Below, one piece after another: positions 611 to 17,209 of a stretch of 64,000 bases of DNA. Under the pieces are notes generated by a model, which was given only the letters and a program-made list of their open reading frames with translations, made no database searches and was not told the origin of the DNA. Origin of the DNA: an uncultured Chloroflexia bacterium. Its GTDB lineage: Bacteria > Chloroflexota > Limnocylindria > Limnocylindrales > CSP1-4. A program made the translations under genes and the position numbers. Position 1 is the stretch's first letter; each line of letters starts with the position of its first letter. The stretch is from contig OY970218.1 of the NCBI GenBank assembly GCA_963713975.1, positions 3,560,742 to 3,624,741 on the forward strand, in the 5' to 3' direction.

Positions 611-1051
611 ATGCGCAACGGCGCCGAACGGAGGATCGTCGGCTTGGTCGGTCTGGTGCTGGTGGCGCACAGCCAGGACGTGGTGCGTGGCCTGATGGCC
701 ATGGTGGCCCAGGCCGCCCCGGCCGTGCCCGTCGCCGGGGCCGGCGGCCTGGGTGGGGACCGGCTGGGTACAAATGGCCTCGAGGTCGCCGATGCGCTCC
801 GCGATGCCCTCGCGCGGACGGCGGACGACGGTGTGCTGGTGCTGCTGGACCTGGGCAGCGCCTCGCTCGCCCTGGACGTGGCGCTCGACGAGCTCGACCC
901 AGGGGTGCGAGGCCTCGTCCGCGTCACGGAGGCGCCCTTCGTCGAGGGCGCGGTGATGGCCGCGGTGGCGGCTGCGGGCGGCGCCAACCTGGACGCCGTG
1001 GCCATGGCCGCCGATGGCGCGTGCTCATTACCCAAGCGGCCCCGCGACTGA
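611..1051 (+). CDS. dhaM: DhaM-type PTS EIIA(Man) phosphotransferase subunit
   Basis: GLVLVAHS with phospho-His, AGG..LGT, LLDLGSA, APFVEGA; start uncertain (548 or 611). Confidence 0.85.
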   Translation: MRNGAERRIVGLVGLVLVAHSQDVVRGLMAMVAQAAPAVPVAGAGGLGGDRLGTNGLEVADALRDALARTADDGVLVLLDLGSASLALDVALDELDPGVRGLVRVTEAPFVEGAVMAAVAAAGGANLDAVAMAADGACSLPKRPRD

Positions 1052-1052
1052 G

Positions 1053-1784
1053 GTGGCAGCCACGTCCGCGGCGCCCGACCCGTTCCGGGGCCAAGTGGGC
1101 GTCATCGAGGCGTGGCTGCGCTGCGCCGCCGAACGCGTCCACGAGCACCGGATCTGGCTGACCGACCTCGACGCGGCGATCGGTGACGGCGACCACGGCA
1201 TCAACATGGATCGGGGCTTCACCGCCCTGGTGGCCGACCTGGACGCAGGGGCCCTCCCGACCGACGGCATCGGCCGCCTCCTGGCCGCGGCCGGCCGGCG
1301 CCTGCTGGGCAACGTGGGTGGCGCCAGCGGCGCGTTGTACGGCCGAGGCCTCATGGCAGCCGGCGACCGCATCGGAGGGGGGTCGATCGACGCCGATGCC
1401 GGCGGTCGGACCCTCCTGGAGCTCGCCCTCGCGGCGGCCGTCGACGGCGTTGCAGCGCTGGGGCGATCGGGCCCGGGGGACAAGACGATGCTCGATGCCC
1501 TCGTCCCGGCGCTGGCTGCGATCCGAGCGACCGCCCCGGCCATGCCGGTCGCGCAGGTGGTGGCCCTGGCCGCAGGGGCCGCCGAGGCGGGTGCCGCGGG
1601 CACGATCCCGATGGTCGCGCGGAGAGGGCGGGCCAGCTACCTGGGAGAGCGGGCCGCCGGGCACCTCGATCCCGGGGCGGCATCGAGCGCCATCCTGGTG
1701 CGCGCCCTCGCGGACGTCCTCGCCGCAGTCGAGTCCGGGGCCGAGCATGAGCCACGCCGCAGAGAAGGTCCCACGCGACCCTGA
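1053..1784 (+). CDS. dhaL: Dihydroxyacetone kinase subunit L paralog
   Basis: [53 protein letters not shown]; GTG right after upstream stop. Confidence 0.9.
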   Translation: MAATSAAPDPFRGQVGVIEAWLRCAAERVHEHRIWLTDLDAAIGDGDHGINMDRGFTALVADLDAGALPTDGIGRLLAAAGRRLLGNVGGASGALYGRGLMAAGDRIGGGSIDADAGGRTLLELALAAAVDGVAALGRSGPGDKTMLDALVPALAAIRATAPAMPVAQVVALAAGAAEAGAAGTIPMVARRGRASYLGERAAGHLDPGAASSAILVRALADVLAAVESGAEHEPRRREGPTRP

Positions 1785-2095
1785 AACGCCGGTCGGACCG
1801 GGATGCGACCGGGTGGCGGCAAGGATGCAGAACGGATTCACGTTGTCTTGAGATTCCGCGACCCGGCACGCCCCTAGAGTCCACTTAACCGCGCTTGCAG
1901 CGGCGGGTCTTGGCACGACCGGGTCGCCCGGCCCGCCCGTCGATGGTTGCGAAAGGAGGAGCCACCGGAGGAGGGATAGCCCGACACGGCCCACCTGCCC
2001 GCGCCGCGCCAACAGTTCGCCGCAGGGCCGCAGACCGGGCCACCGTCGATCGAGCCCCGGGGACCGGGGCCAATCCACTAGAGGGAGTTCGAGGC

Positions 2096-2839
2096 ATGGT
2101 TTGGGATACCAACATTTTCCTCGCCGAAGTGTTCGGGACGGGACTCCTCGTCCTGCTCGGTGACGGCGTGGTCGCAGGCGTCCTGCTCGCGAAGTCCAAG
2201 TCCAACAACGCTGGCTGGATCGTCATCACAGCGGCATGGGCGTTCGCCGTGTTCGTCGGCGTCGTCGTCGCCGGCCCGATCAGCGGCGCGCACCTGAACC
2301 CGGCGGTCACGATCGGCCTCGCCGTCCAGGGCGCCACCCCGTGGGACCAGGTCCCCGTGTACCTGCTGGGCGAGTTCGTCGGGGCCTTCATCGGCGCGAC
2401 GCTCGTCACGATCCACTATTGGGATCACTACAAGCAGACCGAGGACCAGGGCCTCAAGCTCGCCACGTACTGCACCGCTCCGAACATCCGCAACTACCCG
2501 CTCAACTTCGTCTCAGAGGTCATCGGCACCTTCGTGCTGGTGTTCGTGATCTTCACGTTCGGCACCAACGGCAGCTCGGCCGGCCTCGCATCGCTGGGGG
2601 CCCTGCCCGTCGCGATCCTCGTGTTCTCGATCGGCATGTCGCTCGGCGGCACGACCGGGTACGCGATCAACCCGGCCCGTGACCTCGGGCCCCGCATCAT
2701 CCACGCGATCCTGCCGGTCCCGGGCAAGGGTGGCTCGGACTGGGAGTACTCCTGGGTTCCGGTCGTCGGCCCGGTTGTCGGTGGAATCCTGGCGGCGTTG
2801 GTCTACAACGGCGTCTGGGTCAACGTGATGGGGATGTAG
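2096..2839 (+). CDS. glpF: Glycerol uptake facilitator (MIP/aquaglyceroporin)
   Basis: SGAHLNPAVT and GYAINPARDLGPR NPA motifs; hydrophobic; RBS-like GAGG upstream. Confidence 0.95.
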   Translation: MVWDTNIFLAEVFGTGLLVLLGDGVVAGVLLAKSKSNNAGWIVITAAWAFAVFVGVVVAGPISGAHLNPAVTIGLAVQGATPWDQVPVYLLGEFVGAFIGATLVTIHYWDHYKQTEDQGLKLATYCTAPNIRNYPLNFVSEVIGTFVLVFVIFTFGTNGSSAGLASLGALPVAILVFSIGMSLGGTTGYAINPARDLGPRIIHAILPVPGKGGSDWEYSWVPVVGPVVGGILAALVYNGVWVNVMGM

Positions 2840-2865
2840 CGACACCATCCTGACGAACGGCGCGC

Positions 2866-2900
2866 TCGTCGCCGGGGCGCCCTCCGGTCCCCGGCGGCGA
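2866..2900 (+). other. Intercistronic stem-loop between glpF and dhaK
   Basis: TCGTCGCCGGGG ... CCCCGGCGGCGA, 12-bp stem with one G-U pair, no U tract. Confidence 0.45.
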
Positions 2901-2926
2901 TCCCTCCACCAGTACGGGGAGAGCTC

Positions 2927-3925
2927 ATGAAGAAGCTCATCAACGCACCCGAGAACGTCGTCGACGAGGCCCTCGCGGGGATGCTCGCCGCCCACCCGGG
3001 CTACATCCGGGTCGAGGAGCCGAACATCGTCGTCCGCAAGGACGCCCCGCGCGCCGGCAAGGTCGGCGTGATCTCGGGTGGTGGCTCGGGCCACGAGCCG
3101 ATGCACGGCGGCTTCGTCGGCATGGGCATGCTCGACGCGGCCTGCCCGGGTGCCGTGTTCACGTCGCCCGTCCCGGACCAGATGCTCGCGGCCACCAAGG
3201 CCGTGGACGGTGGCGCGGGCGTGCTCCACATCGTCAAGAACTACACCGGCGACATCATGAACTTCGAGATGGCGGCCGAGATGGCACGCGCCGAAGGGCT
3301 CGAGGTCACGGCGGTCGTCATCGCGGACGACGTCGCGGTCAAGGATTCGCTGTACACGGCCGGCCGGCGCGGCGTCGGCGGCACGGTGCTCGCGGAGAAG
3401 ATCGTCGGCGCGGCCGCCGAGGCGGGTGCCGACCTGGCCACCGTCACGGCGCTCTGCCAGAAGGTCCAGGACAACGTCCGCTCCATGGGCATGGCCCTCA
3501 CGAGCTGCACGGTGCCCATGGCCGGCAAGCCGACATTCGAGATCGCGGACGACGAGATGGAGATCGGCGTCGGCATCCATGGTGAGCCGGGCCGGTCCCG
3601 CGAGAAGCTCGCCACGGCCGACGAGATCACCGAGATGCTCGCCACGCCGATCCTCGACGACCTGCCCTTCGAGAGCGGGGACAACGTCCTCGCGTTCGTG
3701 AACGGCCTCGGCGGCACCCCGCTCGTCGAGCTCTATGTCGTCTACAACAAGCTTGCCCAGATGTGCGCCGCACGAGGCGTGACGATCACCCGCAACCTCA
3801 TCGGCAGCTACATCACGTCGCTCGACATGGCCGGCTGCTCCATCACCCTGCTCAAGCTCGACGACGAGCTGACGAAGTACTGGGACGCCCCGGTCAACAC
3901 GCCTGCGCTCCGGTGGGGCGTCTGA
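2927..3925 (+). CDS. dhaK: Dihydroxyacetone kinase subunit K
   Basis: [43 protein letters not shown]. Confidence 0.97.
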
Positions 3926-3959
3926 CCCGGCGACCCGATCTGCGAGCGGGAGAACCACG

Positions 3960-4607
3960 ATGAGCACCGCGCCACACATCAGCTACGACGACGTCGTGGC
4001 ATGGGTCAGTCTGCTGGCCGAGCGGTTCCACGCCGAGAAGGAGTACCTCACGGCGCTGGACTCCGCGATCGGGGATGCCGACCACGGCATCAACATGGAT
4101 CGCGGCCTCGGGGCCGTGATGGTCAAGCTGCCGGCGCTGCCAACCGGCGATGTCGGCGCCTTCCTCAAGGGCGTGGGGATGACGCTCGTCTCCACCGTCG
4201 GCGGCGCGAGCGGTCCGCTCTACGGCACCTTCTTCCTCCAGCTCGGTGGCGCGACCGCCGGCAGGACGGAGATCGAGCTCGGTGACTTCGCCACGGGGCT
4301 GGAGGCCGGCGTCGCCGGGATCCAGCGCCTGGGCAAGGCCGAGCCGGGCGACAAGACCATGCTCGACGCACTCCTGCCGGCACGCGACGCGCTGCGCGCG
4401 GGCGTTGACCGGGGCGACAGCCCGGCCGACGCTCTTGGCGCGGCCGTCGCGGCGGCCGAGCAGGGCATGGTCGCCACCATCCCGCTCGTCGCCCGCAAGG
4501 GTCGGGCGAGCTACCTCGGGGAGCGCAGCGCGGGTCACCAGGACCCGGGTGCGACGTCCTCCCATCTCCTCCTCAAGGCTGCCGCCGATTCCTGGTTCCA
4601 AGCCTAG
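3960..4607 (+). CDS. dhaL: Dihydroxyacetone kinase subunit L
   Basis: [49 protein letters not shown]; adjacent to dhaK. Confidence 0.96.
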
Positions 4608-4638
4608 GCATCCTTCACACACAGGAGCTCGCATCTTC

Positions 4639-6135
4639 ATGACCAAGTATGTCGGGGCCCTCGACCAGGGCACCACGAGCACCCGCTTCATGATCTTCGA
4701 CCACGCGGGCGGCGTGGTCGCCATCGACCAGAAGGAGCACGAGCAGATCTTCCCCAAGCCCGGCTGGGTAGAGCACGACGCGATCGAGATCTGGACCCGC
4801 TGCCGGGAAGTCATCAAGGGCGCCATGGCCAAGGCCGGCATCACCGCCGCCGACCTCGCCGCCGTGGGCATCACCAACCAGCGCGAGACCGCGCTGGTCT
4901 GGGACAGGAAGACCGGCATGCCGGTCTTCAACGCGATCGTCTGGCAGGACACTCGAACCGACGTCCTCGTGAACGAGTTCGCCAAGGAGGGCGGGCAGGA
5001 CCGCTTCCGCGCGAAGGTCGGCCTGCCGCTGGCCACGTACTTCTCGGGGCCCAAGGTCCGCTGGATCCTGGACAACGTCCCCGGCGCGCGCGCAAAGGCG
5101 GAGGCCGGCGACCTGGTGTTCGGCAACATGGACACCTGGTGCATCTGGAACCTCACGGGCGGCGTCAACGGCGGCGTCCATGTGACGGACGTCACCAACG
5201 CCAGCCGCACCATGCTCATGGACCTCGAGACCCTGTCCTGGGACGATGAGATCCTCGGCATCATGGGCATCCCGAAGTCCATGCTCCCGGAGATCAAGGC
5301 ATCGTCCGAGGTCTACGGCACCTGTGTCGGCGACCTCGCCGGCGTGCCGGTTGCGGGCGACCTCGGCGACCAGCAGGCGGCCCTGTTCGGCCAGACGTGC
5401 TTCTCGCCCGGCGAGGCGAAGAACACCTACGGCACCGGCTGCTTCATGCTCATGAACACGGGCGAGAAGGCTGTCCCGTCCAAGAGCGGCCTGCTCACCA
5501 CGATGAGCTACAAGATCGGCGACCAGCCGGCGGTGTACGCCCTCGAGGGGTCCATCGCGATCACCGGCGCGCTCGTGCAGTGGCTGCGCGACAACCTCGG
5601 CATGATCGCCAAGTCCGAGGACGTGGAGGCGCTCGCGGCCACGGTCGATGACAACGGCGGCGTCTACTTCGTCCCCGCGTTCTCCGGCCTGTTCGCCCCG
5701 TACTGGAAGAGCGACGCTCGCGGTGTCATCGCGGGCCTCACCCGTTACGTGAACAAGGGTCACATCGCGCGTGCCGTCCTCGAGGCGACGGCGTGGCAGA
5801 CCCGCGAAGTGCTCGACGCCATGAACACCGACTCCGGTGTTCCGCTGACGGCCCTCAAGGTCGACGGTGGCATGGTGTTCAACAACATGCTCATGCAGTT
5901 CCAGGCCGATGTCCTGGGCGTCCCGGTCATCCGGCCGGTCGTCGCCGAGACCACGGCCCTGGGCGCGGCCTATGCCGCCGGCCTCGCGGTCGGCTACTGG
6001 GCCGAGATCGAGGACCTGCGCGAGAACTGGGCGCGTGACGCCGAGTGGACCCCGGAGATGGCTGCCGAGATCCGCGAGAAGGACTACGCCCAGTGGAAGA
6101 AGGCCGTCACGCGGACCTTCAACTGGGTCGACTAG
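4639..6135 (+). CDS. glpK: Glycerol kinase
   Basis: [48 protein letters not shown]; AGGAG RBS. Confidence 0.98.
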
Positions 6136-6159
6136 CCTCCGTTCGCGTCTGAACGGACC

Positions 6160-6192
6160 CGGCCCCGACGCCCATCACGGGCGTCGGGGCCG
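6160..6192 (+). terminator. GC-rich hairpin after glpK (terminator or mRNA-stabilising stem)
   Basis: CGGCCCCGACGCCC-ATCAC-GGGCGTCGGGGCCG perfect 14-bp stem; no U tract. Confidence 0.55.
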
Positions 6193-6212
6193 TCACCTGA
6201 CAGGGAGGGATC

Positions 6213-6617
6213 ATGCAACCAGGCGTCGCCTGCGTCGGGCTCGTCGTGGTCTCACACTCGAGCCGGATCGCCGAGGGAACGGCCGAGCTGGCCGGACAGA
6301 TGGCCGGACCCGACGTCCGCATCCGGCCGGCCGGAGGGATGGAGGACGGCTCCATCGGCACGGATGCCGCCCGCATCGCCATGGCCATCGGCGAGGCCGA
6401 TGCCGGCGCGGGGGTCGTGGTCGTGGCGGACCTCGGCAGCGCCGTGCTCGCCACCCGCACGGCACTGGAGCTGCTGGGTGACCCGGGGAACGTGCGCCTC
6501 AGCCGCGGCCCGATCGTCGAGGGCGCGGTCATGGCCGCCGTCCAGTCGAGCACGGGTTCTGACCTGGAGCAGGTCCTCGAGGCGGCCGAGGGTGCCGCGT
6601 CCCTGCCCAAGGGTTAG
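6213..6617 (+). CDS. dhaM: DhaM-type PTS EIIA(Man) phosphotransferase subunit (second copy)
   Basis: GLVVVSHS, AGGMEDGSIGT, ADLGSAVL, PIVEGA; GGGAGG RBS. Confidence 0.9.
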   Translation: MQPGVACVGLVVVSHSSRIAEGTAELAGQMAGPDVRIRPAGGMEDGSIGTDAARIAMAIGEADAGAGVVVVADLGSAVLATRTALELLGDPGNVRLSRGPIVEGAVMAAVQSSTGSDLEQVLEAAEGAASLPKG

Positions 6618-6705
6618 AGTGGGGGCCGGGCGTCCGCCCGTGGCGGGCCCGCGAACGAGTCAGCTTGGGCGCGTCGGCCTGCGCCCACACAGCGAGGTGA
6701 ACCAC

Positions 6706-8388
6706 ATGACGGTGCCGCACGCCGTCGACGTCCTCGTCATCGGAGGAGGCGCGACGGGTGCCGGGGTCCTCCGCGACCTGGCGCGGAGGGGCCTGCGGGC
6801 CCTGCTCGTGGAGCGCAGCGACTTCGGGACCGGGACGACGGGCCGCTACCACGGCCTGCTGCACTCCGGCGGCCGTTACGTGGGCAAGGACAAGGTCGCC
6901 GCCCGTGAGTGCATCGTCGAGAACCGCGTTCTGCGCCGGATCGCCCCCGCGAGCATCGAGGATACGGGCGGCTACTTCGTGGCCACGCCCGACGATCCCG
7001 ACGACTACGTGGAGGCATTCGCGGAGAACTGCCGCCTCTCCGGTGTCGACTGCGAGGAGGTCAAGGTCGCGGACCTGCTTGCCCGCGAGCCGGCGCTCAA
7101 CCCGAGGATCCGGCGGGCATTCCGCGTGCCGGACGGCTCCGTGGAACCGTGGCAGCTGATCGAGGCGACCGTCACCGACGCCCGCCGCCACGGCAGCGAG
7201 GCCCTCGCCTACCAGCGCGTGATCGGGATGGATCTCAGCGGCGGCCGGATCGCGGCCGTGACCTTGCGCGACGAGCGGACGGGCACTGTGTCGCAGGTCT
7301 GGACCCACTTCGTGATCTCGGCGGCCGGCGCCTGGGCGGGACAGATCGCCGCCCTGGCGAGGGTCAACGTCGAGATGACCCCCGGCAAGGGCACGATGCT
7401 CATCTTCAATCACCGGATGACCGATGCCGTGGTCAATCGCTGCCATCGCTCAGCGGACGGCGACATCATGGTCCCCGTCCACACGGTGGCCATCCTGGGC
7501 ACCACCGACATCAAGGTTCCCGATCCCGACGACTACGAGATCACCCGGGAGGAGGTTCGGCGTCTCGTCGGCGAGGGCTCCAAGATGTTCCCGGATCTCC
7601 CGCGGATGCGCATCCTTCGCGCGTATGCGGGCGTGCGTCCCCTCTACCAACCGCCGGCGGCAACGGTGGCCGAAGCGGGCAATCGGGCGATCACCCGGGC
7701 CCACTCCATCCTCGACCATGCCGACCAGGGCGTGGAGAACTTCGTCTCGATCGTTGGGGGCAAGCTGACCACGCACCGCCTGATGGCCGAGGAGACCGTG
7801 GACGCGGTCGCGGCCAGGATGGGCGTCTCGGCGCCGTGCACGACGGCGGACGAGGTCCTGCCGGACCAGGACGGCGGTCACACCTACTGGCTGGGCCACC
7901 GCCTCGCAGACCACGAGCAGGAGGGCGGCGGTGACGCCAACCTCGTATGCGAGTGCGAGATCGTCACCCGGAAGATGGTAGAAGGCTACCTGGACACGCA
8001 CTGGCCCTGCTCCATCGACGACGTCCGGCGTGGCACCCGCGTCGGCATGGGACCGTGCCAGGGGGCGTTCTGCACCTTCCGGGTCGCGGGCCTCATGGCG
8101 GAGCGACTCGATGCGCACACGGCGGCCACAGGGCAGCCGGCGCCGGGTGCCCACGTCGTCGACGGGCACCACCCTGGGAGCAGCGCGCTGCACGCGGCCA
8201 TCGCGGACCGGGCGCTGACGGCATTCCTCCGGGAACGGTTCAAGGGCACCCGGCCCATCGCCGACGGCCGGCAGCTCCAGGAGCTGATGATGACCAACGG
8301 GATCTATCTCGGCGTCCTGGGCCTGGAATCGATGGTGTCCGCGCCGGTCCCGGCGCTCGACGAGGAGAGCCTCGATGCCGCACGCTGA
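6706..8388 (+). CDS. glpA: Anaerobic glycerol-3-phosphate dehydrogenase subunit A
   Basis: VIGGGATG, GTTGRYHGLLHSGGRY, GGKLTT, C-terminal CECE...GMGPCQGAFC BFD-like [2Fe-2S] domain. Confidence 0.93.
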   Translation: MTVPHAVDVLVIGGGATGAGVLRDLARRGLRALLVERSDFGTGTTGRYHGLLHSGGRYVGKDKVAARECIVENRVLRRIAPASIEDTGGYFVATPDDPDDYVEAFAENCRLSGVDCEEVKVADLLAREPALNPRIRRAFRVPDGSVEPWQLIEATVTDARRHGSEALAYQRVIGMDLSGGRIAAVTLRDERTGTVSQVWTHFVISAAGAWAGQIAALARVNVEMTPGKGTMLIFNHRMTDAVVNRCHRSADGDIMVPVHTVAILGTTDIKVPDPDDYEITREEVRRLVGEGSKMFPDLPRMRILRAYAGVRPLYQPPAATVAEAGNRAITRAHSILDHADQGVENFVSIVGGKLTTHRLMAEETVDAVAARMGVSAPCTTADEVLPDQDGGHTYWLGHRLADHEQEGGGDANLVCECEIVTRKMVEGYLDTHWPCSIDDVRRGTRVGMGPCQGAFCTFRVAGLMAERLDAHTAATGQPAPGAHVVDGHHPGSSALHAAIADRALTAFLRERFKGTRPIADGRQLQELMMTNGIYLGVLGLESMVSAPVPALDEESLDAAR

Positions 8389-9709
8389 CGTCGTCGTCAT
8401 CGGTGCCGGGCTCGCCGGGATGGTCGCCGCGACACGGCTCGCCGAGGCGGGCGCAGTGGTGACGCTGGTCGCCAAGGGCCACGCGAGCACCCACTGGGGC
8501 TCGGGCGGGCTGGACGTCGCGGCGCCGACCGGTGCAGCCACCACGGCCGACGGGGTCGCGCGCCTCGCGAGGCTCGAGCACCCGTACGCGTTCCTGGCTC
8601 CGGACGTCGCGCCGTCCGTCGGCTGGCTCCTCGATCGGCTGGAGGCAGGGGGGCTCCCCTACTCAGGAACGCTCGACACGCCCATCCGGCGCGTGCCCAC
8701 GGCCATCGGCGGCACGCGGCGCGTCGCGATCGTGCCCGAGGCCCAGGCCGCGGCGCAGCGGGCATGGCAGGGGGACGAGGTCCTGGTGGTCGCCGGCCCA
8801 ACCGGGTTCAAGGACTTCTGGCCGGCCGCGATCGCGGGCAGCCTGGGTCGTGAGGCCGTGTGGCACGGCGCGGACCGGCCGGACCGGCTGGTGGGCGTGG
8901 CCGTGGACCTGCCCGGTCTCTCGGAGCGGAACAACCTGAACGCGCTCCTGCTGGCGGGCCGATTCGATGACCCGTCCCGGTGGTCGGACGACATCGGCCG
9001 GATCGCCAAGGCAGTCGAGCGGGCCGCCGGGGGTCGGCCGGGGCGCGTCGCCCTGCCCGCGATCTTCGGCCTGAGCCGGCACACGGAGATCTGGGCCGAG
9101 CTCCGGGCGCGGCTGTCCCTCGAGCCGTTCGAGGTTCCGCTGGTGCCCCCCAGCATCCCGGGCATCCGCCTGTGGCGGCTGCTCCGCGAGCACCTCCGAG
9201 CGGCCGGCGGTCGCATCCAGGTGGGTGAGGCCGTGGCGAGGATCCACGTCGAGGCAGGTCGAGTGACCGCGGTGGAGATGGAGGCCGCCACCCGGACCCA
9301 CCTGATCCGCACCGAGGCCATCGTCCTGGCAACGGGCGGCATCGCCGGGGGCGGGCTCGTTGCCCACGGCGACGGCCGCCTGGCCGAACCCCTGCTCGAC
9401 CTGCGCGTCGACGCCCCCGAGCACGACCTGTGGCTGGTCAAGGACGCCCTGGACCCGGCGGGCCACCCGATCGAGGCGGCGGGCGTGCCGACGGATCCCG
9501 GCCTCCGGCCGCTCGGCCCCGCACACCAGGTCTCGCACGCCAACGTGCTCGTCGCCGGTGCGCTCCTCGCCCGACAGCGCGCCCTGCGGGAGCGCTGCGG
9601 GGACGGCGTGGCCGTCGCATCGGGCTGGCGCGCCGCCAACCAGTTGGCCGCCGGCGCCACCCGCCATCCTGTCGGCCGCGAGCCGGTGACCCCGAGGTTC
9701 GAGCAGTGA
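8375..9709 (+). CDS. glpB: Anaerobic glycerol-3-phosphate dehydrogenase subunit B
   Basis: VIGAGLAG, PPSIPGIRL, VLATGG, CGDGVA; lies between glpA and glpC. Confidence 0.92.
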   Translation: MPHADVVVIGAGLAGMVAATRLAEAGAVVTLVAKGHASTHWGSGGLDVAAPTGAATTADGVARLARLEHPYAFLAPDVAPSVGWLLDRLEAGGLPYSGTLDTPIRRVPTAIGGTRRVAIVPEAQAAAQRAWQGDEVLVVAGPTGFKDFWPAAIAGSLGREAVWHGADRPDRLVGVAVDLPGLSERNNLNALLLAGRFDDPSRWSDDIGRIAKAVERAAGGRPGRVALPAIFGLSRHTEIWAELRARLSLEPFEVPLVPPSIPGIRLWRLLREHLRAAGGRIQVGEAVARIHVEAGRVTAVEMEAATRTHLIRTEAIVLATGGIAGGGLVAHGDGRLAEPLLDLRVDAPEHDLWLVKDALDPAGHPIEAAGVPTDPGLRPLGPAHQVSHANVLVAGALLARQRALRERCGDGVAVASGWRAANQLAAGATRHPVGREPVTPRFEQ

Positions 9710-11043
9710 GCATCGCCGACGTCGTCCGGGAGGCGGCCGCAGACCGGCCCGTGTCGTCCACCGCCGACGAGTGCCTCAAGTGCAACGTCTGCAACACGGT
9801 CTGCCCGGTGATGCGGGTCACGGACCTGTTCGCCGGCCCCAAGTACGAGGGCCCGCAGGCGCAGCGCCTACGCATGGCCGCCGGGCAGGTGATCCAGGGG
9901 CCGCACTCGAGCAATCCGCGCTCCCCCGACCACTCGGTGGACTACTGCTCCGGCTGCGGCTGGTGCACGACCGCGTGTCCGGCGGGCGTGAAGATCGCCG
10001 AGATGAACAACCAGGCCCGCGGGCGGCTCCGCGAGGGCAAGCGGCCCAGGCTTCGTGACTGGACCCTCGGCCAGACCGACCTCACGGGGTCGATGGGCGT
10101 GCTCTTCTCGCCGCTCGCCAACTTCGCCTTCCACAACCGCGTCGTGCGGGCGGTGGTCGAGGTCGGCTTCGGCGTCCACCGCAAGGCGCCGTTCCCCCGG
10201 TTCGCGAAACGCACCTTCGCCTCGACCTGGAAGAAGCGCCAGGCCAGGAGCGGCGACGGGGGAAGGCCGAAGGGCCGGCCGGGTCCGGACGCGGCCATCG
10301 TCTATTTCCATGGCTGCTCGGCCAACTACTACGAGCCGCACGTGGCCGAGGCCGCGATCTGGGTGCTCAAGCGGAACGGCTTCGAGACGATCGTCCCCGA
10401 GCAGGTCTGCTGCGGACTGCCGCTGATCAGCAACGGGCTCTACGACGACGCTCGCGAGCGTGCGTGCACGAACACGAAGGTGCTCGCCGAGTACGCCCGG
10501 GCCGGCTACCGGATCATCGGCACCTCCACCTCCTGCACCCACACGCTCAAGGCCGAGTACGAGGAGATGCTCGACATGCGCGACGACGATACCCGCGCCG
10601 TCGCCCATGCCACCTGGGACATCTGCGAGTTCCTGCTGCACCTGCACGAGGAAGGGCGCCTCGACACCGGCTTCGGCCGCCTGGACGAGGACCTCGCCTA
10701 CCACGCCCCGTGCCAGCTCCGGAGCCACGGCATCGGGCTGCCGGCGCTCGATCTGTTCGCCCTCGTCCCGGGGCTGCGGGCCGTGGACATGGACCACGAC
10801 TGCTGCGGCATGGCGGGCACGTATGGCCTCAAGCGCGAGAAGTACGACATCGCGGCCAGGGTCGGCGAGCCGCTCTTCCGTAAGGTCAGGGAATCGGGCG
10901 CCAGCGAGGCGGCCTGCGACTCCGAGACCTGCCGCTGGCAGATCGAGACGGCGACCGGGGTCCGGACCCGTCACCCGGTCGAGATCCTGCGGGACGCCTA
11001 CCGGTCCGCGGACGAGGCGACGGCACCCGCCACAGCGGGTTGA
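9706..11043 (+). CDS. glpC: Anaerobic glycerol-3-phosphate dehydrogenase subunit C
   Basis: CLKCNVCNTVCP, CSGCGWCTTACP, two CCG domains (CCGLP, CCGMAG), CETCRWQI; GTGA overlap with glpB. Confidence 0.93.
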   Translation: MSIADVVREAAADRPVSSTADECLKCNVCNTVCPVMRVTDLFAGPKYEGPQAQRLRMAAGQVIQGPHSSNPRSPDHSVDYCSGCGWCTTACPAGVKIAEMNNQARGRLREGKRPRLRDWTLGQTDLTGSMGVLFSPLANFAFHNRVVRAVVEVGFGVHRKAPFPRFAKRTFASTWKKRQARSGDGGRPKGRPGPDAAIVYFHGCSANYYEPHVAEAAIWVLKRNGFETIVPEQVCCGLPLISNGLYDDARERACTNTKVLAEYARAGYRIIGTSTSCTHTLKAEYEEMLDMRDDDTRAVAHATWDICEFLLHLHEEGRLDTGFGRLDEDLAYHAPCQLRSHGIGLPALDLFALVPGLRAVDMDHDCCGMAGTYGLKREKYDIAARVGEPLFRKVRESGASEAACDSETCRWQIETATGVRTRHPVEILRDAYRSADEATAPATAG

Positions 11044-11144
11044 GGGTTCGGACGGCCCATCAAGGTCACCTTCCGGGCCCCGAGGACGGTCGGATCGACA
11101 CTCGACACGAGTGCGGTCGGGGCGCGAACCTTGTCTCGATTGCG

Positions 11145-12332
11145 ATGGAGTCAAGCAGCGCTCCTCAGGTGGTGATCGTCGGTGGCGGTGGCACAGGCGG
11201 TGCTCTCGCCCACGACCTCACGCTCCGTGGACTCAGGGTCGTGCTCGTAGAGCGCCACGGGCTGACGTCCGGGACCACGGGGCGCCACCATGGACTGTTC
11301 CATTCGGGCGCCAGGTACGCGGTCAACGACCCCGAATCCGCCGCCGAGTGCATCCGCGAGAACCGCATCCTCCGTCGGATCTGTCCCGGCTCGTTCGAGC
11401 TCAACGACGGCCTGTTCGTTGCGCTCGACGAAGAGGACTTGGACTTCCGCGAACGGTTCATGCCCGCCTGCGAGGCCTCCGGCATCCCCGTCCGCTGGCT
11501 GACCGCCGCCGAGGCACTGCGCCTCGAGCCCAACCTCGACCCCGGACTCCTGGGCGCCGCCCAGGTTCCCGATGGGACCATGGATGCGATGCGCCTGCCG
11601 CTGCGCTTCTTTGCGACCGCCCTGGCCAACGGCGCCGCCATCAACCCGTACACCGAGGTCACGGGCCTGAATGGCTCCTCCGGTTGCGTGACGGGCGTCC
11701 GGGTCCTGGACCGGATGACGGGTCGGGCCTATGCCATCGGCGCCGATGTCGTCGTCAATGCCGCTGGCCCGTGGGGCGGCCAGGTCGGACGGATGGCCGG
11801 TGTCGACGTGCCGGTGCGGCCGTCGCCGGGCGTACTCGTGGCGATGTGCGGCCGCCACAGCGAGATGGTCGTGAGCCGCCTGCACGCATCGTCAGACGGC
11901 GACATCGTGGTGCCCCAGCGGGCACTCTCGATCATCGGGACCAGCTCCTGGCTGGCGGAGGACCCGGACGAGCTCGACGTACCCGAGGATCACGTCCAGC
12001 GGATGCTCACGGAAGGTGCCCGGCTCCTCCCGTCGCTGCGGGGAGCGGAGATGCGGGCCGCGTGGTCGGCGGCGCGGCCGCTGGTCGGCGATCGCGGCGG
12101 GGAGACCGGGCGCGAGCTGAGCCGCACCTTCAAGTGCTTCGACCACGCGGCGGACGACGGCGTCGAGGGCTTCGTCACGATCTCCGGCGGCAAGGGGACG
12201 ACCCTGCGCGGCATGGCGGAGCTCACGGCGGACGTCGTCTGCCGCAAGCTGGGGATCGAAACCCCGTGCCGCACGGCGGAGACGGTCCTGCTGCCCCACA
12301 CCGCCTTCCATCGCGTCCCGGTGGCGGCCTGA
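11145..12332 (+). CDS. Second GlpA-family FAD-dependent oxidoreductase lacking the C-terminal BFD [2Fe-2S] domain
   Basis: IVGGGGTG, GTTGRHHGLFHSGARY, NAAGPW, GGKGTT; ends at CRTAETVLLP with no CxC...CQGxxC. Confidence 0.88.
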   Translation: MESSSAPQVVIVGGGGTGGALAHDLTLRGLRVVLVERHGLTSGTTGRHHGLFHSGARYAVNDPESAAECIRENRILRRICPGSFELNDGLFVALDEEDLDFRERFMPACEASGIPVRWLTAAEALRLEPNLDPGLLGAAQVPDGTMDAMRLPLRFFATALANGAAINPYTEVTGLNGSSGCVTGVRVLDRMTGRAYAIGADVVVNAAGPWGGQVGRMAGVDVPVRPSPGVLVAMCGRHSEMVVSRLHASSDGDIVVPQRALSIIGTSSWLAEDPDELDVPEDHVQRMLTEGARLLPSLRGAEMRAAWSAARPLVGDRGGETGRELSRTFKCFDHAADDGVEGFVTISGGKGTTLRGMAELTADVVCRKLGIETPCRTAETVLLPHTAFHRVPVAA

Positions 12333-12333
12333 C

Positions 12334-13122
12334 ATGACGACCCTGCTCGATCGGTCGGCCGAGGCGCCCGAGGCGGCGCCCGTGCCGTCCCGCCCGTTCC
12401 GGATCCTGCGCCACCACCGGGGCCGGGAGCCTCGCTGGGACCACTACCGGGCGCCCGTGACGTCCGCACGGACGACGGTCCTGGATGCCCTGACCTGGAT
12501 CCGTGCCCACCTGGATCCGACCCTGGATGTCCGCCACTCGTGCTTCCACGCCTCGTGCGGGACATGCGGCATGCGCGTCAACGGCCGCGACGTGCTCGCC
12601 TGTGTCACGCGGCTGGCCGACCTCGGCCCGGGCGAGGTGACCGTCGAGCCGCTGCTCAACCAGCCGATCGTGAGCGACCTGGTCGTGGACATCGAGGCAC
12701 TCTACGAAGCGTTTGACGGAGTGGGCCTGCCGCTCGTCCGCCGGTCCGAGGCCATGGGCGGCTCGCGCCCGGCTGATGGCGTGGACCACCTGACCCGATT
12801 CGAGGACTGCATCGAGTGCGGGCTGTGCGTGTCGGCCTGCCCGATCGAGGCCAGCGACGCCGCCTACGTCGGCCCCGGCGTGCTCGCGGCCGCCTGGAGG
12901 GTCATCGACGAGCCCCGTGACGCAGATCCGGCGCGAGCCTTCGCGCTCGTCGACGGCGACCAGGGCGCGTGGCGCTGCCACCTGGCCTTCGAGTGCAGCG
13001 AGGCGTGCCCGTCGGGTGCGCTGCCAGCCGAACAGATCATGCACCTTCGGCGCGGGCTCCTGCGCCACCGCCTCCGGGCGGTGTTCGGACGCGCGGCCGG
13101 AGGTGACGGGAGGGCGTCGTGA
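12334..13122 (+). CDS. SdhB/FrdB-family iron-sulfur subunit
   Basis: SCFHASCGTC..NG..VLAC ([2Fe-2S]), CIECGLCVSACP ([4Fe-4S]), CHLAFECSEACP ([3Fe-4S]). Confidence 0.92.
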   Translation: MTTLLDRSAEAPEAAPVPSRPFRILRHHRGREPRWDHYRAPVTSARTTVLDALTWIRAHLDPTLDVRHSCFHASCGTCGMRVNGRDVLACVTRLADLGPGEVTVEPLLNQPIVSDLVVDIEALYEAFDGVGLPLVRRSEAMGGSRPADGVDHLTRFEDCIECGLCVSACPIEASDAAYVGPGVLAAAWRVIDEPRDADPARAFALVDGDQGAWRCHLAFECSEACPSGALPAEQIMHLRRGLLRHRLRAVFGRAAGGDGRAS

Positions 13123-13529
13123 TGGACCGCGTCGAAGGGCGACGGGCGGACGCGCCACGGAGGCGCGGCATCGCCGGCTGGTTCGATCCGCGCCACCGGC
13201 ATCTCGGCGAATGGGCGTTCGCCCTCAACCGCCTGTCGGGACTGGGCGTGCTGCTCTACCTGTACCTGCACCTCGTGATCCTGTCGCTGCTTGCGCGCGG
13301 CCCGGATGAGTGGGACGCCTTCGTCGGCATCGCGACGAGCCCGGCGATCCTCGTCTTCGATGTGGTGCTGCTTGCCGGGCTGCTCATCCACGGCTTCAAC
13401 GGCGTCCGCCTCACCCTGCTGGGCTCCGGGCTGGTGGTCGGCCGCCAGAAGGCGCTCTATGTGGCGCTGATGGTGATCGCCGGGGTCGTGCTGCTGACCG
13501 GTGCCATCCGGATCTTCGAGGTGGCCTGA
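13122..13529 (+). CDS. SdhC-like cytochrome b membrane anchor
   Basis: 3 TM segments, WAFALNRLSG..LYLHL, HGFNGVRL. Confidence 0.85.
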   Translation: MDRVEGRRADAPRRRGIAGWFDPRHRHLGEWAFALNRLSGLGVLLYLYLHLVILSLLARGPDEWDAFVGIATSPAILVFDVVLLAGLLIHGFNGVRLTLLGSGLVVGRQKALYVALMVIAGVVLLTGAIRIFEVA

Positions 13530-13530
13530 C

Positions 13531-13914
13531 ATGGCCGTGACGTGGACCCCGGAAGCCGCCGAGCGCATCCGAGCCGAACGGGACTGGGCATGGGTCATCC
13601 AGGCCGCGACGGGGGCCGCGGTGCTGGTCCTGGTCACGGTCCACATGATCGCGAACCACTTCATCCTGCCCGATGGGCTGCGGGGCTTCGCGGAGGTCGT
13701 GGCCTACCTGTCCAACCCGGTGATCGTCGCTCTTGAGCTCACCTTCCTCGTGACGGTGACTTGGCACGCGCTGCTGGGTGTCCGGGCCGTGCTGTTCGAC
13801 TTCGGGTTCTCGTCGCGGGCCGAGATCCGGATCACGCGCCTGTTGGCCGTCGTCGGCGTGCTCACGGTCGGGTATGGTCTCTGGCTCACGGCGGTGATCA
13901 CCGGCCAGGGCTGA
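13531..13914 (+). CDS. SdhD-like hydrophobic membrane anchor
   Basis: 3 TM segments, WVIQAATG..VHM, WHALLGVRAVLFDF. Confidence 0.85.
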   Translation: MAVTWTPEAAERIRAERDWAWVIQAATGAAVLVLVTVHMIANHFILPDGLRGFAEVVAYLSNPVIVALELTFLVTVTWHALLGVRAVLFDFGFSSRAEIRITRLLAVVGVLTVGYGLWLTAVITGQG

Positions 13915-13942
13915 TCGCCGCTCGACCCTCAGGAGGAGCGAC

Positions 13943-15013
13943 GTGCCCGAAGCGCCCGAAGCGCCAGCACCGCTGCGGGTGGTGGTGATCGGGTCCGGCG
14001 CCGTGGGCTCGTTCCTGGGGGGCTCGCTGGCTGCCGCTGGTCACGCCGTGACCCTGCTGGGCCGGCGGCCGGCCACGGGTGCCGATGCCGGGCTGCTGCT
14101 CCTCGAGGGCCCGGACGAGACGCGCCGGGTGCCCGTCCAGCAGACACATGACGCGGCGGAGGCGGACGTCCCGCAGCTCGCCATCGCTGCCGTCAAGATG
14201 TTCGATCTCGAGGAGGCGCTGGCAACGGCGGCCCGCTGGCCGGACGCCGTGATCATGACCGTCCAGAACGGCGTGGGCGCCGAGGAGGTCGCGCGGGCGG
14301 CCCGGACGTCACCCCTGATCGCCGCTTCCCTCACCACGGCCGTGGAGCCCGTCCCGGGCGGCGTGCGACGGCTGCGCACCGGGGGCATTGGCGTGGCCGC
14401 GGTACCCGGCGACGGCACCGCCGCCGCGGGTGCGACGGCCCGGCGTCTCGCGGAGTCCCTGGCCGCGGCCGGCCTGCCGGCGCGCGTCTACCCCGATGCC
14501 GCCGCGATGAAGTGGTCCAAGCTCCTCGCGAACCTCGTCGGCAACGCGACGAGCGCCATCCTGGACATGAGCCCGGGCGAGATCTACGCGGACCGCCGCC
14601 TCTACCCCATCGAGCGGCGCCAGCTCCAGGAGGCGGCAGCGGTGATGCGGGCCCTCGGCCTGGAGACGGTGGCACTGCCCGGGGCGCACGTGCAGCTGCT
14701 GCTGAGGGGCCTGGCTCTGCCAGCGGCGATCGGCCGCCCCGTGATCGCCCGGGCGATCGCCGGCGCCCGGGGCGGCAAGTCCCCATCCCTCCGCCTGCAT
14801 GTCAGGGGTGGCGGCAGCGGCCCGACCGAGGCGCGCTGGCTCAACGGCGCAGTCGCAACCGCGGGCATCCGGACCGGCGTGCCAGCACCCGTCAATGCCT
14901 GCCTGGCCGCGCTCGTGGACGAGGTGGCGGCGGACCCTGGACGCGCTGCGTGGTTCGCCGGCAGGCCGGACCGGCTCGCGGACGCCGTGGCCGCGTGGCC
15001 GACACGCCCGTAA
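13943..15013 (+). CDS. Ketopantoate reductase (PanE/ApbA)-family oxidoreductase
   Basis: IGSGAVG, AVK, VQNGVG, KWSKLLANL, KSPSL, TEARWLNG; AGGAG RBS. Confidence 0.85.
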   Translation: MPEAPEAPAPLRVVVIGSGAVGSFLGGSLAAAGHAVTLLGRRPATGADAGLLLLEGPDETRRVPVQQTHDAAEADVPQLAIAAVKMFDLEEALATAARWPDAVIMTVQNGVGAEEVARAARTSPLIAASLTTAVEPVPGGVRRLRTGGIGVAAVPGDGTAAAGATARRLAESLAAAGLPARVYPDAAAMKWSKLLANLVGNATSAILDMSPGEIYADRRLYPIERRQLQEAAAVMRALGLETVALPGAHVQLLLRGLALPAAIGRPVIARAIAGARGGKSPSLRLHVRGGGSGPTEARWLNGAVATAGIRTGVPAPVNACLAALVDEVAADPGRAAWFAGRPDRLADAVAAWPTRP

Positions 15014-15028
15014 CGAACGCCCCGGGCC

Positions 15029-15034
15029 TATACT
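15029..15034 (+). promoter_or_regulatory. -10 box for a probable leaderless plsY transcript
   Basis: TATACT 8 nt before GTG 15043; no SD. Confidence 0.55.
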
Positions 15035-15042
15035 CCGCCTCC

Positions 15043-15672
15043 GTGGAACCCTTCGACCTCCTGCGCGCCGTCCTCATCGTGGCCGCCGCCTACCTGATCG
15101 GTGGCATCCCCTGGGGCGTCATCGTCGCCAAGGTCACGGGGGGGCCGGATCCGCGCAGCATGGGCAGCGGCCGGACAGGCGGCGCCAACACGATGCGGGC
15201 CCTCGGGCCGCGCCTGGCCCTCGTCTCGGGGCTGCTCGACATGCTCAAAGGCACGGTCGCGGTGCTCCTGGCGCAGGCGCTCGGTGGCGGCGTGGGCGTC
15301 GAGGTCGCGGCGGCTCTGGCGGCGATCGTCGGCCACAGCCGCTCCCCGTTCCTGGGCTTCGGGGGTGGACGCGGCGTCGCGCCAGCCTTCGGCGGGCTCC
15401 TGGCCTTCCAGCCGCTCATCGCCCTGGCCATCATCCCGCTCTTCGCCGGGGTGATCCTGGTCACCCGCTACTCGTCGCTGGGCTCGCTGGCCGGCTCAGC
15501 CGCGGCAGGGATCCTGCTGGTCATCGCGACCGTGACCGTCCCCCTGGACCCGTGGATGTACGTCTACGCGGTGGGCGGCACCGGGCTCGTCTGGCTGTTC
15601 CACATGGACAACATCCACCGGCTCCTCAACGGCCAGGAGCGCAAGCTCGGGTCCCCGCGACCCGAGGAGTGA
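15043..15672 (+). CDS. plsY: Glycerol-3-phosphate acyltransferase PlsY
   Basis: YLIGGIPWG, GSGRTGGAN, DMLKG, GHS..F.GGRGVA, RYSSLGS, HMDNIHRL. Confidence 0.93.
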   Translation: MEPFDLLRAVLIVAAAYLIGGIPWGVIVAKVTGGPDPRSMGSGRTGGANTMRALGPRLALVSGLLDMLKGTVAVLLAQALGGGVGVEVAAALAAIVGHSRSPFLGFGGGRGVAPAFGGLLAFQPLIALAIIPLFAGVILVTRYSSLGSLAGSAAAGILLVIATVTVPLDPWMYVYAVGGTGLVWLFHMDNIHRLLNGQERKLGSPRPEE

Positions 15673-15707
15673 CCCGGGAAGTCGCCCGGACCTCGAGGCC
15701 GTCACCC

Positions 15708-15992
15708 TCAGTCGGGGATCGCCTCGCCCATCCCGCCGTCGACGAACCCCTCGAGGGTCTCGATGGCGGTGTCCTCGTCCTCGCCCTCCGCCACCAGCCG
15801 GATCCGGTGGCCCTTCGCCACCCCGCTGCCCATCACCATCAGGATCGACTTGGCATCCACCGGTGCCGAACCCCGCTCGAGGTTCTCGAGGGTGATCCTG
15901 GAGGTGAACGACGCCGCGGTCCTGACGAACATGGCGGCCGGACGCGCATGCAGGCCGCTGGGGTTGAGAACGGTCCGTTCGGTGCTCCGCAT
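15708..15992 (-). CDS. ptsH: HPr-family phosphocarrier
   Basis: NPSGLHARPA (His15), DAKSILMVM (Ser46), AEGEDE. Confidence 0.92.
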   Translation of the reverse strand: MRSTERTVLNPSGLHARPAAMFVRTAASFTSRITLENLERGSAPVDAKSILMVMGSGVAKGHRIRLVAEGEDEDTAIETLEGFVDGGMGEAIPD

Positions 15993-16024
15993 GTCCGCAG
16001 GGTACCCGACGCGTGTCCTCCTGA

Positions 16025-17209
16025 TCAGGCGTCGGGCAGGGTGGCGGCCATCACCCGCAGCACGTTCTCGCCCATCACCGCGCGGATCGCGGCGTCCTCC
16101 AGGCCCGCGGCCAGCAGCGCGTCCGTGAGCCAGACCACGTTGGCCGCGTCGAAGGGGACGGCCACCGCGCCGTCCCAGTCCGAGCCCAGGGCGACGTGCT
16201 CCACGCCCACGCGCTCCACGGCGTAGGCGATCGAGCGCGCGATGGCAGCCGCGTCCGGACCGCCGCTCGCCGTCTCCCAGAAGCCGATCCCCACCAGGCC
16301 GCCGGTCGCGGCGATCCCCTCGAGGTGCTCGTCGGAGAGATTGCGGGCGTTGTCGCAGATCCCTCGGACACCGGTGTGCGACGCGACAACCGGCCGGCTG
16401 GAGATCGCCAGGGCGTCGTCGATGGTCCGTGCCGAGCTGTGCGCGACGTCGAGGACCACGCCCCGGGCCTCCATCCGGTGGATCATCTCGCGCCCGGCGC
16501 CCGTGAGGCCGTGCTGCTCCACGCCATGGGCAGAGCCACCGAACGCCGTGTCGAAGAAATGGGCGGGCGAGATCATCCGGATCCCCGCATCGGCGACGAC
16601 ATCCACGTTGGCCGGGTCGCCGTCGAGCGCGTGGGCGCCCTCGATCGACAGCATGCCGGCGGTGATCGCCTCGTTGCCCGCGCGGTCGGCCAGGTAGGCC
16701 GCCAGCTCCGCCCGCGTCCCGATGATCCGGAAGGCGCCGTCGGACGCCGCCGCAAACCGTCGGGCGCTTGCCGCCAGGTGCAGGACACGTGGCATCAGGC
16801 GGCGCCACGTCGCCGGCGGCCAACGCTTGGCCAGGGCGAGCCTGATCACGTCGTCCGAGGTGTCCTCGTTGCGATCGATGTTGAGGCCGCGCGGCGTCTT
16901 GACTGCCATCGAGAATACCTGGAGCGCCACCCGGCCCTCGATCATCCGCGGCACGTCCACGTGGCCGCGGTCGCTGCGACGCAGCAGGTCACGACCGAAC
17001 AAGAGGGAATCCGCGTGGAGGTCCGCGACGCGCAGGGTCGCGTGGAGCTTGCGCGCACGATCACCGACCGGCCCGGAGGGTTCGGGCCCCACGGGGTTCA
17101 TCTGCGCCTCGGTACGGGCCACCAGGGCGTCCAGTGCCGGCCGTGCGGCGACCAGGGCACCTGCGACCGCCACGCCGGTGGCCAGGGCCGCGACCCGCCG
17201 GCCGCTCAT
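16025..17209 (-). CDS. Membrane dipeptidase (peptidase M19) with N-terminal signal/anchor
   Basis: DLHADS, SIEGAH, DVAHSS, ASHTG, RNLSD, ALGSDWDG; N-terminus MSGRRVAALATGVAVAGAL. Confidence 0.88.
   Translation of the reverse strand: MSGRRVAALATGVAVAGALVAARPALDALVARTEAQMNPVGPEPSGPVGDRARKLHATLRVADLHADSLLFGRDLLRRSDRGHVDVPRMIEGRVALQVFSMAVKTPRGLNIDRNEDTSDDVIRLALAKRWPPATWRRLMPRVLHLAASARRFAAASDGAFRIIGTRAELAAYLADRAGNEAITAGMLSIEGAHALDGDPANVDVVADAGIRMISPAHFFDTAFGGSAHGVEQHGLTGAGREMIHRMEARGVVLDVAHSSARTIDDALAISSRPVVASHTGVRGICDNARNLSDEHLEGIAATGGLVGIGFWETASGGPDAAAIARSIAYAVERVGVEHVALGSDWDGAVAVPFDAANVVWLTDALLAAGLEDAAIRAVMGENVLRVMAATLPDA

Follow-up and report, generated by a model that had tools for sequence, protein, structure and literature searches.

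In textbooks, complex II is defined by its SdhA/FrdA flavoprotein. A GlpA-SdhBCD type of glycerol-3-phosphate (G3P) dehydrogenase was proposed from synteny for Thermofilum pendens and its relatives (Schmerling et al. 2025, Commun Biol 8:539, PMC11962113; bioRxiv 2024), and the same paper describes bacterial glpA as consistently co-occurring with glpB and glpC. Here, we describe a four-gene module of this design in the genome of an uncultured Chloroflexia bacterium (contig OY970218.1). The DNA analysed, referred to as the window, forms the 64-kb end of a single 3.62-Mb contig and starts at contig position 3560742. In the module, a short GlpA-type flavoprotein is followed by SdhB-, SdhC- and SdhD-type subunits, which are marked with a prime. 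We consider it quite probable that these proteins form a G3P:menaquinone oxidoreductase built like complex II and independent of the GlpABC enzyme encoded upstream. The genes are as follows (window coordinates):

11145..12332, + strand: short GlpA (GlpA2s), GlpA-type flavin adenine dinucleotide (FAD) flavoprotein, putative catalytic subunit, 395 amino acids (aa), ATG start
12334..13122, + strand: SdhB', SdhB-type iron-sulfur subunit with [2Fe-2S], [4Fe-4S] and [3Fe-4S] motifs, 262 aa
13119..13529, + strand: SdhC', SdhC-type membrane anchor with His51 and His91, 136 aa, GTG start
13531..13914, + strand: SdhD', SdhD-type membrane anchor with His38, His43 and His79, 127 aa

All four genes lie on the + strand with spacings of +1, -4 (an overlap) and +1 nucleotide (nt), in line with the tight coupling (gaps of 1 nt or less) described in the original prediction, which had been made from the letters of the window. 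The motifs quoted there (GTTGRHHGLFHSGARY, LHL and HGFNG in SdhC, VHM and WHALLG in SdhD) were all found in the translations. The end of glpC at 11043 precedes the start of short GlpA by 101 nt, and the homologues in the alignment begin at the same position as short GlpA. A scan of positions 3500-15500 revealed 0 promoter-like sites and one terminator-like site (minus strand), which is no excess over shuffled sequences and gives no information on operon structure. As had been claimed, there is no SdhA/FrdA in the window; a whole-genome profile search placed the sole match to PF02910, the SdhA/FrdA C-terminal domain, outside it.

The closest described system is that of T. pendens. In this archaeon, a GlpA with a divergent or short C-terminus is followed by sdhB-, sdhC- and sdhD-like genes in a glycerol-utilisation context, and the arrangement is read as providing membrane anchoring and electron transfer. 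The window likewise holds a GlpA-clade flavoprotein lacking the BFD domain, with sdhB-, sdhC- and sdhD-like genes directly after glpA. The earlier proposal concerns archaea and is based on synteny only, whereas here the host is bacterial and the module shares its cluster with glpABC. The novelty implied by the original prediction was overstated, since the same design had been drawn for T. pendens in 2025 (PMC11962113); the window contains a bacterial member of a design already proposed for archaea, with glpABC in the same cluster and fusion proteins in relatives as additional features. Full-text searches found no other literature linking GlpA with SdhBCD than Schmerling et al., who regard the design as peculiar to archaea, and the JBC 2023 review of non-canonical complex II (PMC10238741) makes no mention of glycerol or GlpA.

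Three other systems share parts of this architecture. GlpA-CoxG of Sulfolobus acidocaldarius, as outlined in PMC11962113, also combines a truncated GlpA-like enzyme with a non-GlpBC partner for membrane association, but there the partner is a small CoxG-like protein that lacks an Fe-S/haem relay, while here it is a full complex-II electron wire. GlpABC of the Escherichia coli type has the same DAO catalytic family and pathway context; short GlpA differs from its GlpA by the missing BFD domain and C-terminal region, and its partners are SdhB'C'D', not GlpB/GlpC. The dihaem succinate:menaquinone oxidoreductase Sdh2 of Mycobacterium smegmatis (6LUM) is the nearest solved relative of SdhB'C'D', with the same 11 cysteines and matching histidines. 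Its flavoprotein is an SdhA (FAD_binding_2 and Succ_DH_flav_C), whereas that of the module belongs to the DAO/GlpA family, and its substrate is succinate, whereas that of the module is presumably G3P. Measured against complex II, the module has the SdhB cluster ligands and PF01127 anchors with candidate bis-histidine haem ligands, but no SdhA/FrdA subunit.

Subunits of the module

The domain scan of short GlpA returned a DAO match (PF01266, 2e-50) and no match to Fer2_BFD (PF04324), while the upstream copy GlpA1, 39% identical to it, contains DAO and Fer2_BFD; a GlpA/DAO-family protein devoid of the BFD [2Fe-2S] domain is what had been predicted. Against the TIGR03377 GlpA profile, short GlpA aligns end to end with positions 1-380 of 530 and scores 441 bits, below the cut-off of 552.8, because the C-terminal 150 profile positions are missing. 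With the BFD-like [2Fe-2S] domain absent and the equivalog cut-off missed, it is not a GlpA of the GlpABC type. Among proteins of solved structure, the G3P dehydrogenase 3da1_A is closest to it in sequence. The residues R57, R311 and K350, which we take to correspond to the phosphate-binding residues of GlpD, are invariant in the alignment; a literature search turned up no paper that names the substrate-binding residues of GlpD. The open reading frame (ORF) is 386-413 aa long in 67 of 69 loci.

SdhB' contains Fer2_3 (PF13085) and Fer4 domains and scores 173.6 bits against the general SdhB/FrdB model TIGR00384 (cut-off 88). The three Fe-S motifs previously assigned to it are represented by 11 cysteines (C70, C75, C78, C90, C159, C162, C165, C169, C215, C221 and C225), which are invariant in two alignments, of 21 and of 46 homologues. 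A PDB sequence search identified 6lum_B as the nearest solved chain (4.5e-35).

The anchor subunits both match PF01127 above the cut-off (SdhC' 2.6e-10, SdhD' 7.9e-12), and chains of 6LUM are the nearest solved relatives of SdhC' (1e-8) and SdhD' (1.5e-8). The putative 3-TM topology given in the original prediction is based here on the PF01127 matches and on the alignment to 6lum_C. In the M. smegmatis enzyme, according to the description of its haem sites, haem bP is ligated by His D107 and His C87 and haem bD by His D65 and His C47 (Gong et al. 2020, PMC7447783). H51 and H91 of SdhC' are invariant in 70 sequences, and H38, H43 and H79 of SdhD' in 66. In phmmer alignments to 6lum_C, SdhC' H51 and SdhD' H38 fall into the C47/D65 (bD) column, and SdhC' H91 and SdhD' H79 into the C87/D107 (bP) column. 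Because four of the invariant histidines correspond to the bP and bD ligands in Sdh2, SdhC'/SdhD' are likely to be a two-haem-b anchor; the candidate ligands of the dihaem anchor considered possible in the original prediction would be H51, H91, H38 and H79.

PF02910 has one match in the 3.62-Mb genome (C1:3350561-3350941), ~ 210 kb from the module. This SdhA is directly adjoined by a canonical SdhB (C1:3349843-3350532; 34% identical to SdhB'), and a PF01127-like anchor lies upstream of it. The ordinary complex II is complete elsewhere in the genome, and since the sole SdhA sits beside its own canonical SdhB and anchor, none is spare for SdhB'C'D'. The possibility of a lone sdhA, raised together with the original prediction, therefore does not apply.

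Conservation, fusions and predicted contact

Related loci were collected by a profile scan with one genome per species; the best 80 of 515 were kept (SdhB' 50-87% identical) and mapped with tblastn. They originate from Limnocylindrales, Anaerolineae, Promineifilaceae, Ardenticatenaceae and Actinomycetota metagenome-assembled genomes (MAGs), and near homologues carry the source name Candidatus Limnocylindrales. The synteny sought, short glpA with sdhBCD and no sdhA, proved to be conserved: SdhB' is immediately preceded by short GlpA in all 79 loci with upstream DNA (78 found automatically and L103, where a frameshift splits the gene), the remaining locus, L034, starting at SdhB'. SdhC' was detected in 79 and SdhD' in 76 of the 80 loci, with the single SdhC' miss and three of the four SdhD' misses (L068, L071 and L077) corresponding to contig ends, and tblastn revealed no SdhA within 6 kb in any of the 80. 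Directly upstream of short GlpA, glpK was found in 58 of the 80 loci by the test and in five more (L057, L064, L074, L080 and L082) with frameshift-split matches; glpA1BC occupies this position in seven, other genes in two (L070 and L093), and eight have no upstream DNA. A PanE-family gene is present in 44 of the 80.

Among 40 relatives, SdhB' was found at E < 1e-80 in 7 of 24 genomes of the same genus and in 0 of 16 of a second genus; all seven loci have the order short GlpA-SdhB'-SdhC'-SdhD'-PanE. Of 201 evenly drawn Chloroflexota genomes with a completeness of at least 80%, 12, this one included, have an SdhB' match at E <= 1e-50. On the data gathered here, GlpA-SdhBCD is widespread among Chloroflexota and Actinomycetota from soil and freshwater.

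Some individual loci deserve a remark. Seven long-contig MAGs (L057, L064, L074, L080, L082, L096 and L103) have many apparent frameshifts across the glpK, glpA and sdh genes, which look like assembly errors rather than pseudogenes; these loci were excluded from the alignments and the tree. At L093 (6001-8050), the ORF after SdhC' looks thioredoxin/DsbA-type by eye, and the SdhB' of this locus is on a long branch.

In the SdhB' tree, a quick, unrooted tree in which 13 SdhBs of a single order served as outgroup, the SdhB' group stands apart from the sampled canonical SdhBs with an SH-aLRT support of 96. Nesting within canonical SDH clades, against which SdhB phylogeny was to serve as a check, was thus not seen among the SdhBs sampled.

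Additional evidence for the pairing of short GlpA with SdhB' was provided by natural fusion proteins. A search for longer SdhB' relatives (E <= 1e-40) yielded 35 proteins, and 24 of these, all cluster representatives, combine DAO, Fer2_3 and Fer4 in one polypeptide (23 of 664-736 aa, one of 468 aa), a layout that Pfam confirmed on four. The fusions include proteins from the cultured Cellulomonas sp. P24 (WP_259308777.1), Cellulomonas sp. SG140 (WP_263730034.1) and Isoptericola sp. b441/b490 (WP_304599531.1, WP_304606165.1). The locus L070 and the entry P0121 represent one protein, and P0102 is another fusion of GlpA and SdhB. The N-terminal half of the fusion P0126 is 65% identical to short GlpA of the window over the full length of the latter. 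AlphaFold2 modelling of P0126 reached a predicted local distance difference test value (pLDDT) of 50.6 and a predicted template modelling score (pTM) of 0.44 with a 23-row alignment, and 78.9 and 0.75, respectively, with a 99-row alignment, in which the linker 397-438 is disordered; the nearest folds of the modelled flavoprotein half are GlpD and GlpO.

Two further kinds of fusion were encountered. In some Chloroflexota/Anaerolineaceae (L054, L067 and P0109), SdhB' and SdhC' are fused in one 378-aa protein. The other 11 of the 35 long proteins (P0145-P0155) are a different class, SdhB-CCG fusions of ~ 530 aa, in which the SdhB part is 43-51% identical to SdhB' and is joined to a CCG cysteine-rich domain like that of TfrB/GlpC; P0150 was examined, and one member comes from a Solirubrobacteraceae MAG. 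The weaker SdhB' matches in the draw of 201 Chloroflexota genomes (43-48% identity) may belong to such related SdhB types.

To model the contact itself, short GlpA and SdhB' were subjected to complex prediction with our own alignments, including FAD and one 2Fe-2S cluster. The complex score was 0.93, compared with 0.00 for the best of three controls. In calibration, 116 of 157 solved complexes attained this mark, as did 2 of 215 mismatched pairs, a yardstick that is only rough for a prediction with own alignments and ligands. Three runs agreed in at least 88% of contacts, with a partner pLDDT of at least 78. On the SdhB' side, the confident contacts comprise residues 65-75, 77 and 90-91, i.e., the [2Fe-2S] cysteine loop; on the GlpA side, they fall in the TSGTTGR loop beside the flavin (residues 38-47) and in the C-terminal tail (384-391), which is conserved. 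The model supports binding of short GlpA to SdhB', and the flavoprotein-SdhB interface that had been put forward as a check is accordingly a predicted one. PDB sequence searches returned no GlpA-type/SdhB complex, whereas SdhA-SdhB complexes are solved.

Proposed function and competing explanations

Synteny, the fusions and the predicted contact together support the central idea of the original prediction, namely, that a GlpA-type flavoprotein replaces SdhA on an SdhB/C/D scaffold. In the mechanism that we envisage, GlpK would make G3P, which the FAD of short GlpA would oxidise to dihydroxyacetone phosphate (DHAP). Electrons would then pass from FAD to the [2Fe-2S] cluster of SdhB', whose loop would be docked on the flavin-side loop of GlpA, and further through the [4Fe-4S] and [3Fe-4S] clusters and the haem(s) of SdhC'/SdhD' to (mena)quinone. 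We infer menaquinone as the acceptor, the haem content and the direction of electron flow. With potentials of about -190 mV for DHAP/G3P and about -74 mV for menaquinone, electron transfer from G3P to menaquinone is exergonic.

The substrate is suggested by the surroundings of the module, in which the following genes were recognised:

1014-1784: Dak2-domain protein
1895-2839: GlpF
2927-3925: DhaK
3960-4607: DhaL
4639..6135, + strand: GlpK glycerol kinase, named from reading of the sequence and from 70-87% identical homologues
6706..11043, + strand: canonical glpA1-glpB-glpC set (G3P dehydrogenase), between dhaM and the module, assigned by family profiles
13943..15013, + strand: PanE/ApbA-family NAD(P) oxidoreductase (TIGR00745, 159.8 bits, above the cut-off)
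about 15085-15672: PlsY, G3P acyltransferase
15708-16100, - strand: HPr

The upstream part of this glycerol/dihydroxyacetone (DHA) cluster occupies window positions 1014-6617, with DhaM between GlpK and glpA1BC, and the downstream part positions 13943-16100. The surrounding cluster, together with the position of glpK next to the module in most related loci, makes G3P the most probable substrate. Placing a G3P-oxidising flavoprotein in the position of SdhA, as originally predicted, agrees with both observations, G3P itself being deduced from this context. Within the cluster, GlpA1 (6706-8388; DAO and Fer2_BFD) exceeds the TIGR03377 cut-off with 582 bits, and GlpB (TIGR03378, 179.9 bits) and GlpC (NF008369, 471 bits) exceed theirs; the host probably encodes two G3P dehydrogenases, as alternatives to each other, within a single glycerol/DHA cluster. 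A third candidate G3P dehydrogenase is a GlpD-like gene outside the window (C1:2626103-2627536; NF008899, 289 bits, below the cut-off of 360).

Several points weigh against a G3P:menaquinone oxidoreductase of this kind. The complex score expresses the confidence of a model and is not a measurement, and the conservation of the modelled interface is not striking: the GlpA interface columns are only modestly more conserved than the rest (0.85 vs 0.78; 70 of 5000 permutations reach the difference), and those of SdhB' are indistinguishable from the remainder (0.69 vs 0.66; 1123 of 5000 permutations). The locus L093 (Anaerolineales) has short GlpA, SdhB' and SdhC' but no SdhD', and the separation of the SdhB' group comes from a quick tree with a narrow outgroup of 13 SdhBs. 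The usual rationale for a dihaem anchor is succinate oxidation assisted by the proton-motive force (pmf); as electron transfer from G3P to menaquinone is exergonic, this rationale would be inapplicable and a second haem would be left unexplained. With GlpABC upstream and a GlpD-like gene elsewhere, growth on glycerol can be accounted for without the module. Finally, full-text searches of the literature found no biochemical data on any GlpA-SdhBCD member.

Of the competing explanations, the one that fares best retains the architecture and changes the substrate: short GlpA would oxidise glycerol-1-phosphate (G1P), another polyol phosphate or a 2-hydroxy acid. The sub-threshold score of short GlpA against the GlpA equivalog profile (441 vs 552.8 bits), the apparent redundancy of two G3P dehydrogenases in one operon and the PanE-family reductase that accompanies the module in 44 of 80 loci are all compatible with it. 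However, the absence of the C-terminal 150 profile positions accounts for the score shortfall, short GlpA is directly preceded by glpK in at least 58 of 80 loci, and glpABC is not adjacent to the module in most carriers. In addition, R57, R311 and K350 are invariant, their match to the phosphate site of GlpD being presumed, and the flavoprotein half of the fusion model is nearest to GlpD and GlpO. We therefore regard a different substrate as unlikely.

Another explanation, offered as an alternative in the original prediction, is that SdhB'C'D' serve as a shared or alternative membrane anchor for GlpABC, with short GlpA as an accessory or spare catalytic subunit. It draws on the position of glpA1BC directly upstream on the same strand in the window and in seven related loci, but 73 of the 80 loci have the module and no glpABC. 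In five carrier genomes from different lineages (L043, L048, L049, L090 and L105), GlpB (TIGR03378) exceeded the cut-off in none, only Rossmann N-termini matching at about 20 bits, and each genome has one SdhA, with an extra contig-end fragment in one of them. An obligate partnership with GlpB/GlpC is not what these genomes and the seven adjacent glpABC loci indicate. Moreover, GlpC has Fe-S and CCG domains of its own, and the natural fusions join GlpA, not GlpC, to SdhB'. The glpABC-carrying loci and the window are confined to one sub-clade of nine rows in the SdhB' tree (support 99), as would be expected if glpA1BC had been inserted once, and late, into an older glpK-glpA-sdhB'C'D' operon. 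Taken together, these data make anchoring of GlpABC by SdhB'C'D' very improbable, and this part of the original prediction was not supported.

Equally hard to reconcile with the data is a second succinate dehydrogenase/fumarate reductase (SDH/FRD) scaffold, in which SdhB'C'D' would borrow the single SdhA of the genome and short GlpA would act alone as a soluble or monotopic enzyme. SdhB' does pass TIGR00384, and some relatives have a second true SDH (sdhA-C-D-B) with an SdhB that, at 40% identity, is the closest outgroup sequence. Nevertheless, SdhA is near the module in 0 of 80 loci, the coupling to short GlpA holds in 79 of 79, fusions of GlpA with SdhB' occur naturally, the predicted interface is centred on the [2Fe-2S] loop, and the canonical operon already encodes an SdhB and an anchor, so that we give this explanation hardly any weight. 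A pseudogene or relic was rejected because each of the four genes has an open, conserved frame and their spacing remains tight across lineages.

Wider meaning and origin of the module

If short GlpA indeed works with SdhB'C'D', a DAO-family dehydrogenase on an SdhB/C/D base would show the Fe-S and haem wire to be modular, and GlpA-SdhBCD would be a fourth route, beside GlpD, GlpABC and GlpO, by which electrons from glycerol enter the quinone pool. The single-polypeptide fusions of cultured Cellulomonas and Isoptericola make a direct biochemical and structural test practical. There is also a consequence for annotation: as the source names indicate, SdhB', SdhC' and SdhD' are routinely labelled as succinate dehydrogenase subunits, which would inflate SDH counts in metabolic reconstructions.

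A bolder and more doubtful idea, which we put forward only tentatively, is that SdhBCD is a reusable plug-in wire captured by a flavoprotein other than SdhA, with both haems retained so that electrons would cross the membrane and reach quinone at a distal site. Under this assumption, coupling to the pmf would differ from that of GlpD or GlpABC, and the retention of two G3P dehydrogenases in one operon would be explained.

Regarding origin, the bacterial module might have arisen independently of that of Thermofilum. The second true SDH/FRD set is found at L018 and L019, in two genomes of the same genus (G016 and G006), and is ordered sdhA-sdhC-(sdhD)-sdhB. Its SdhB is the outgroup sequence closest to SdhB' in the quick tree, so the set may resemble the scaffold captured by GlpA. 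In the same unrooted tree, the nine Actinomycetota SdhB' sequences (rows L049-L109) form one clade (support 100) nested among those of Chloroflexota, which hints at a transfer between phyla.

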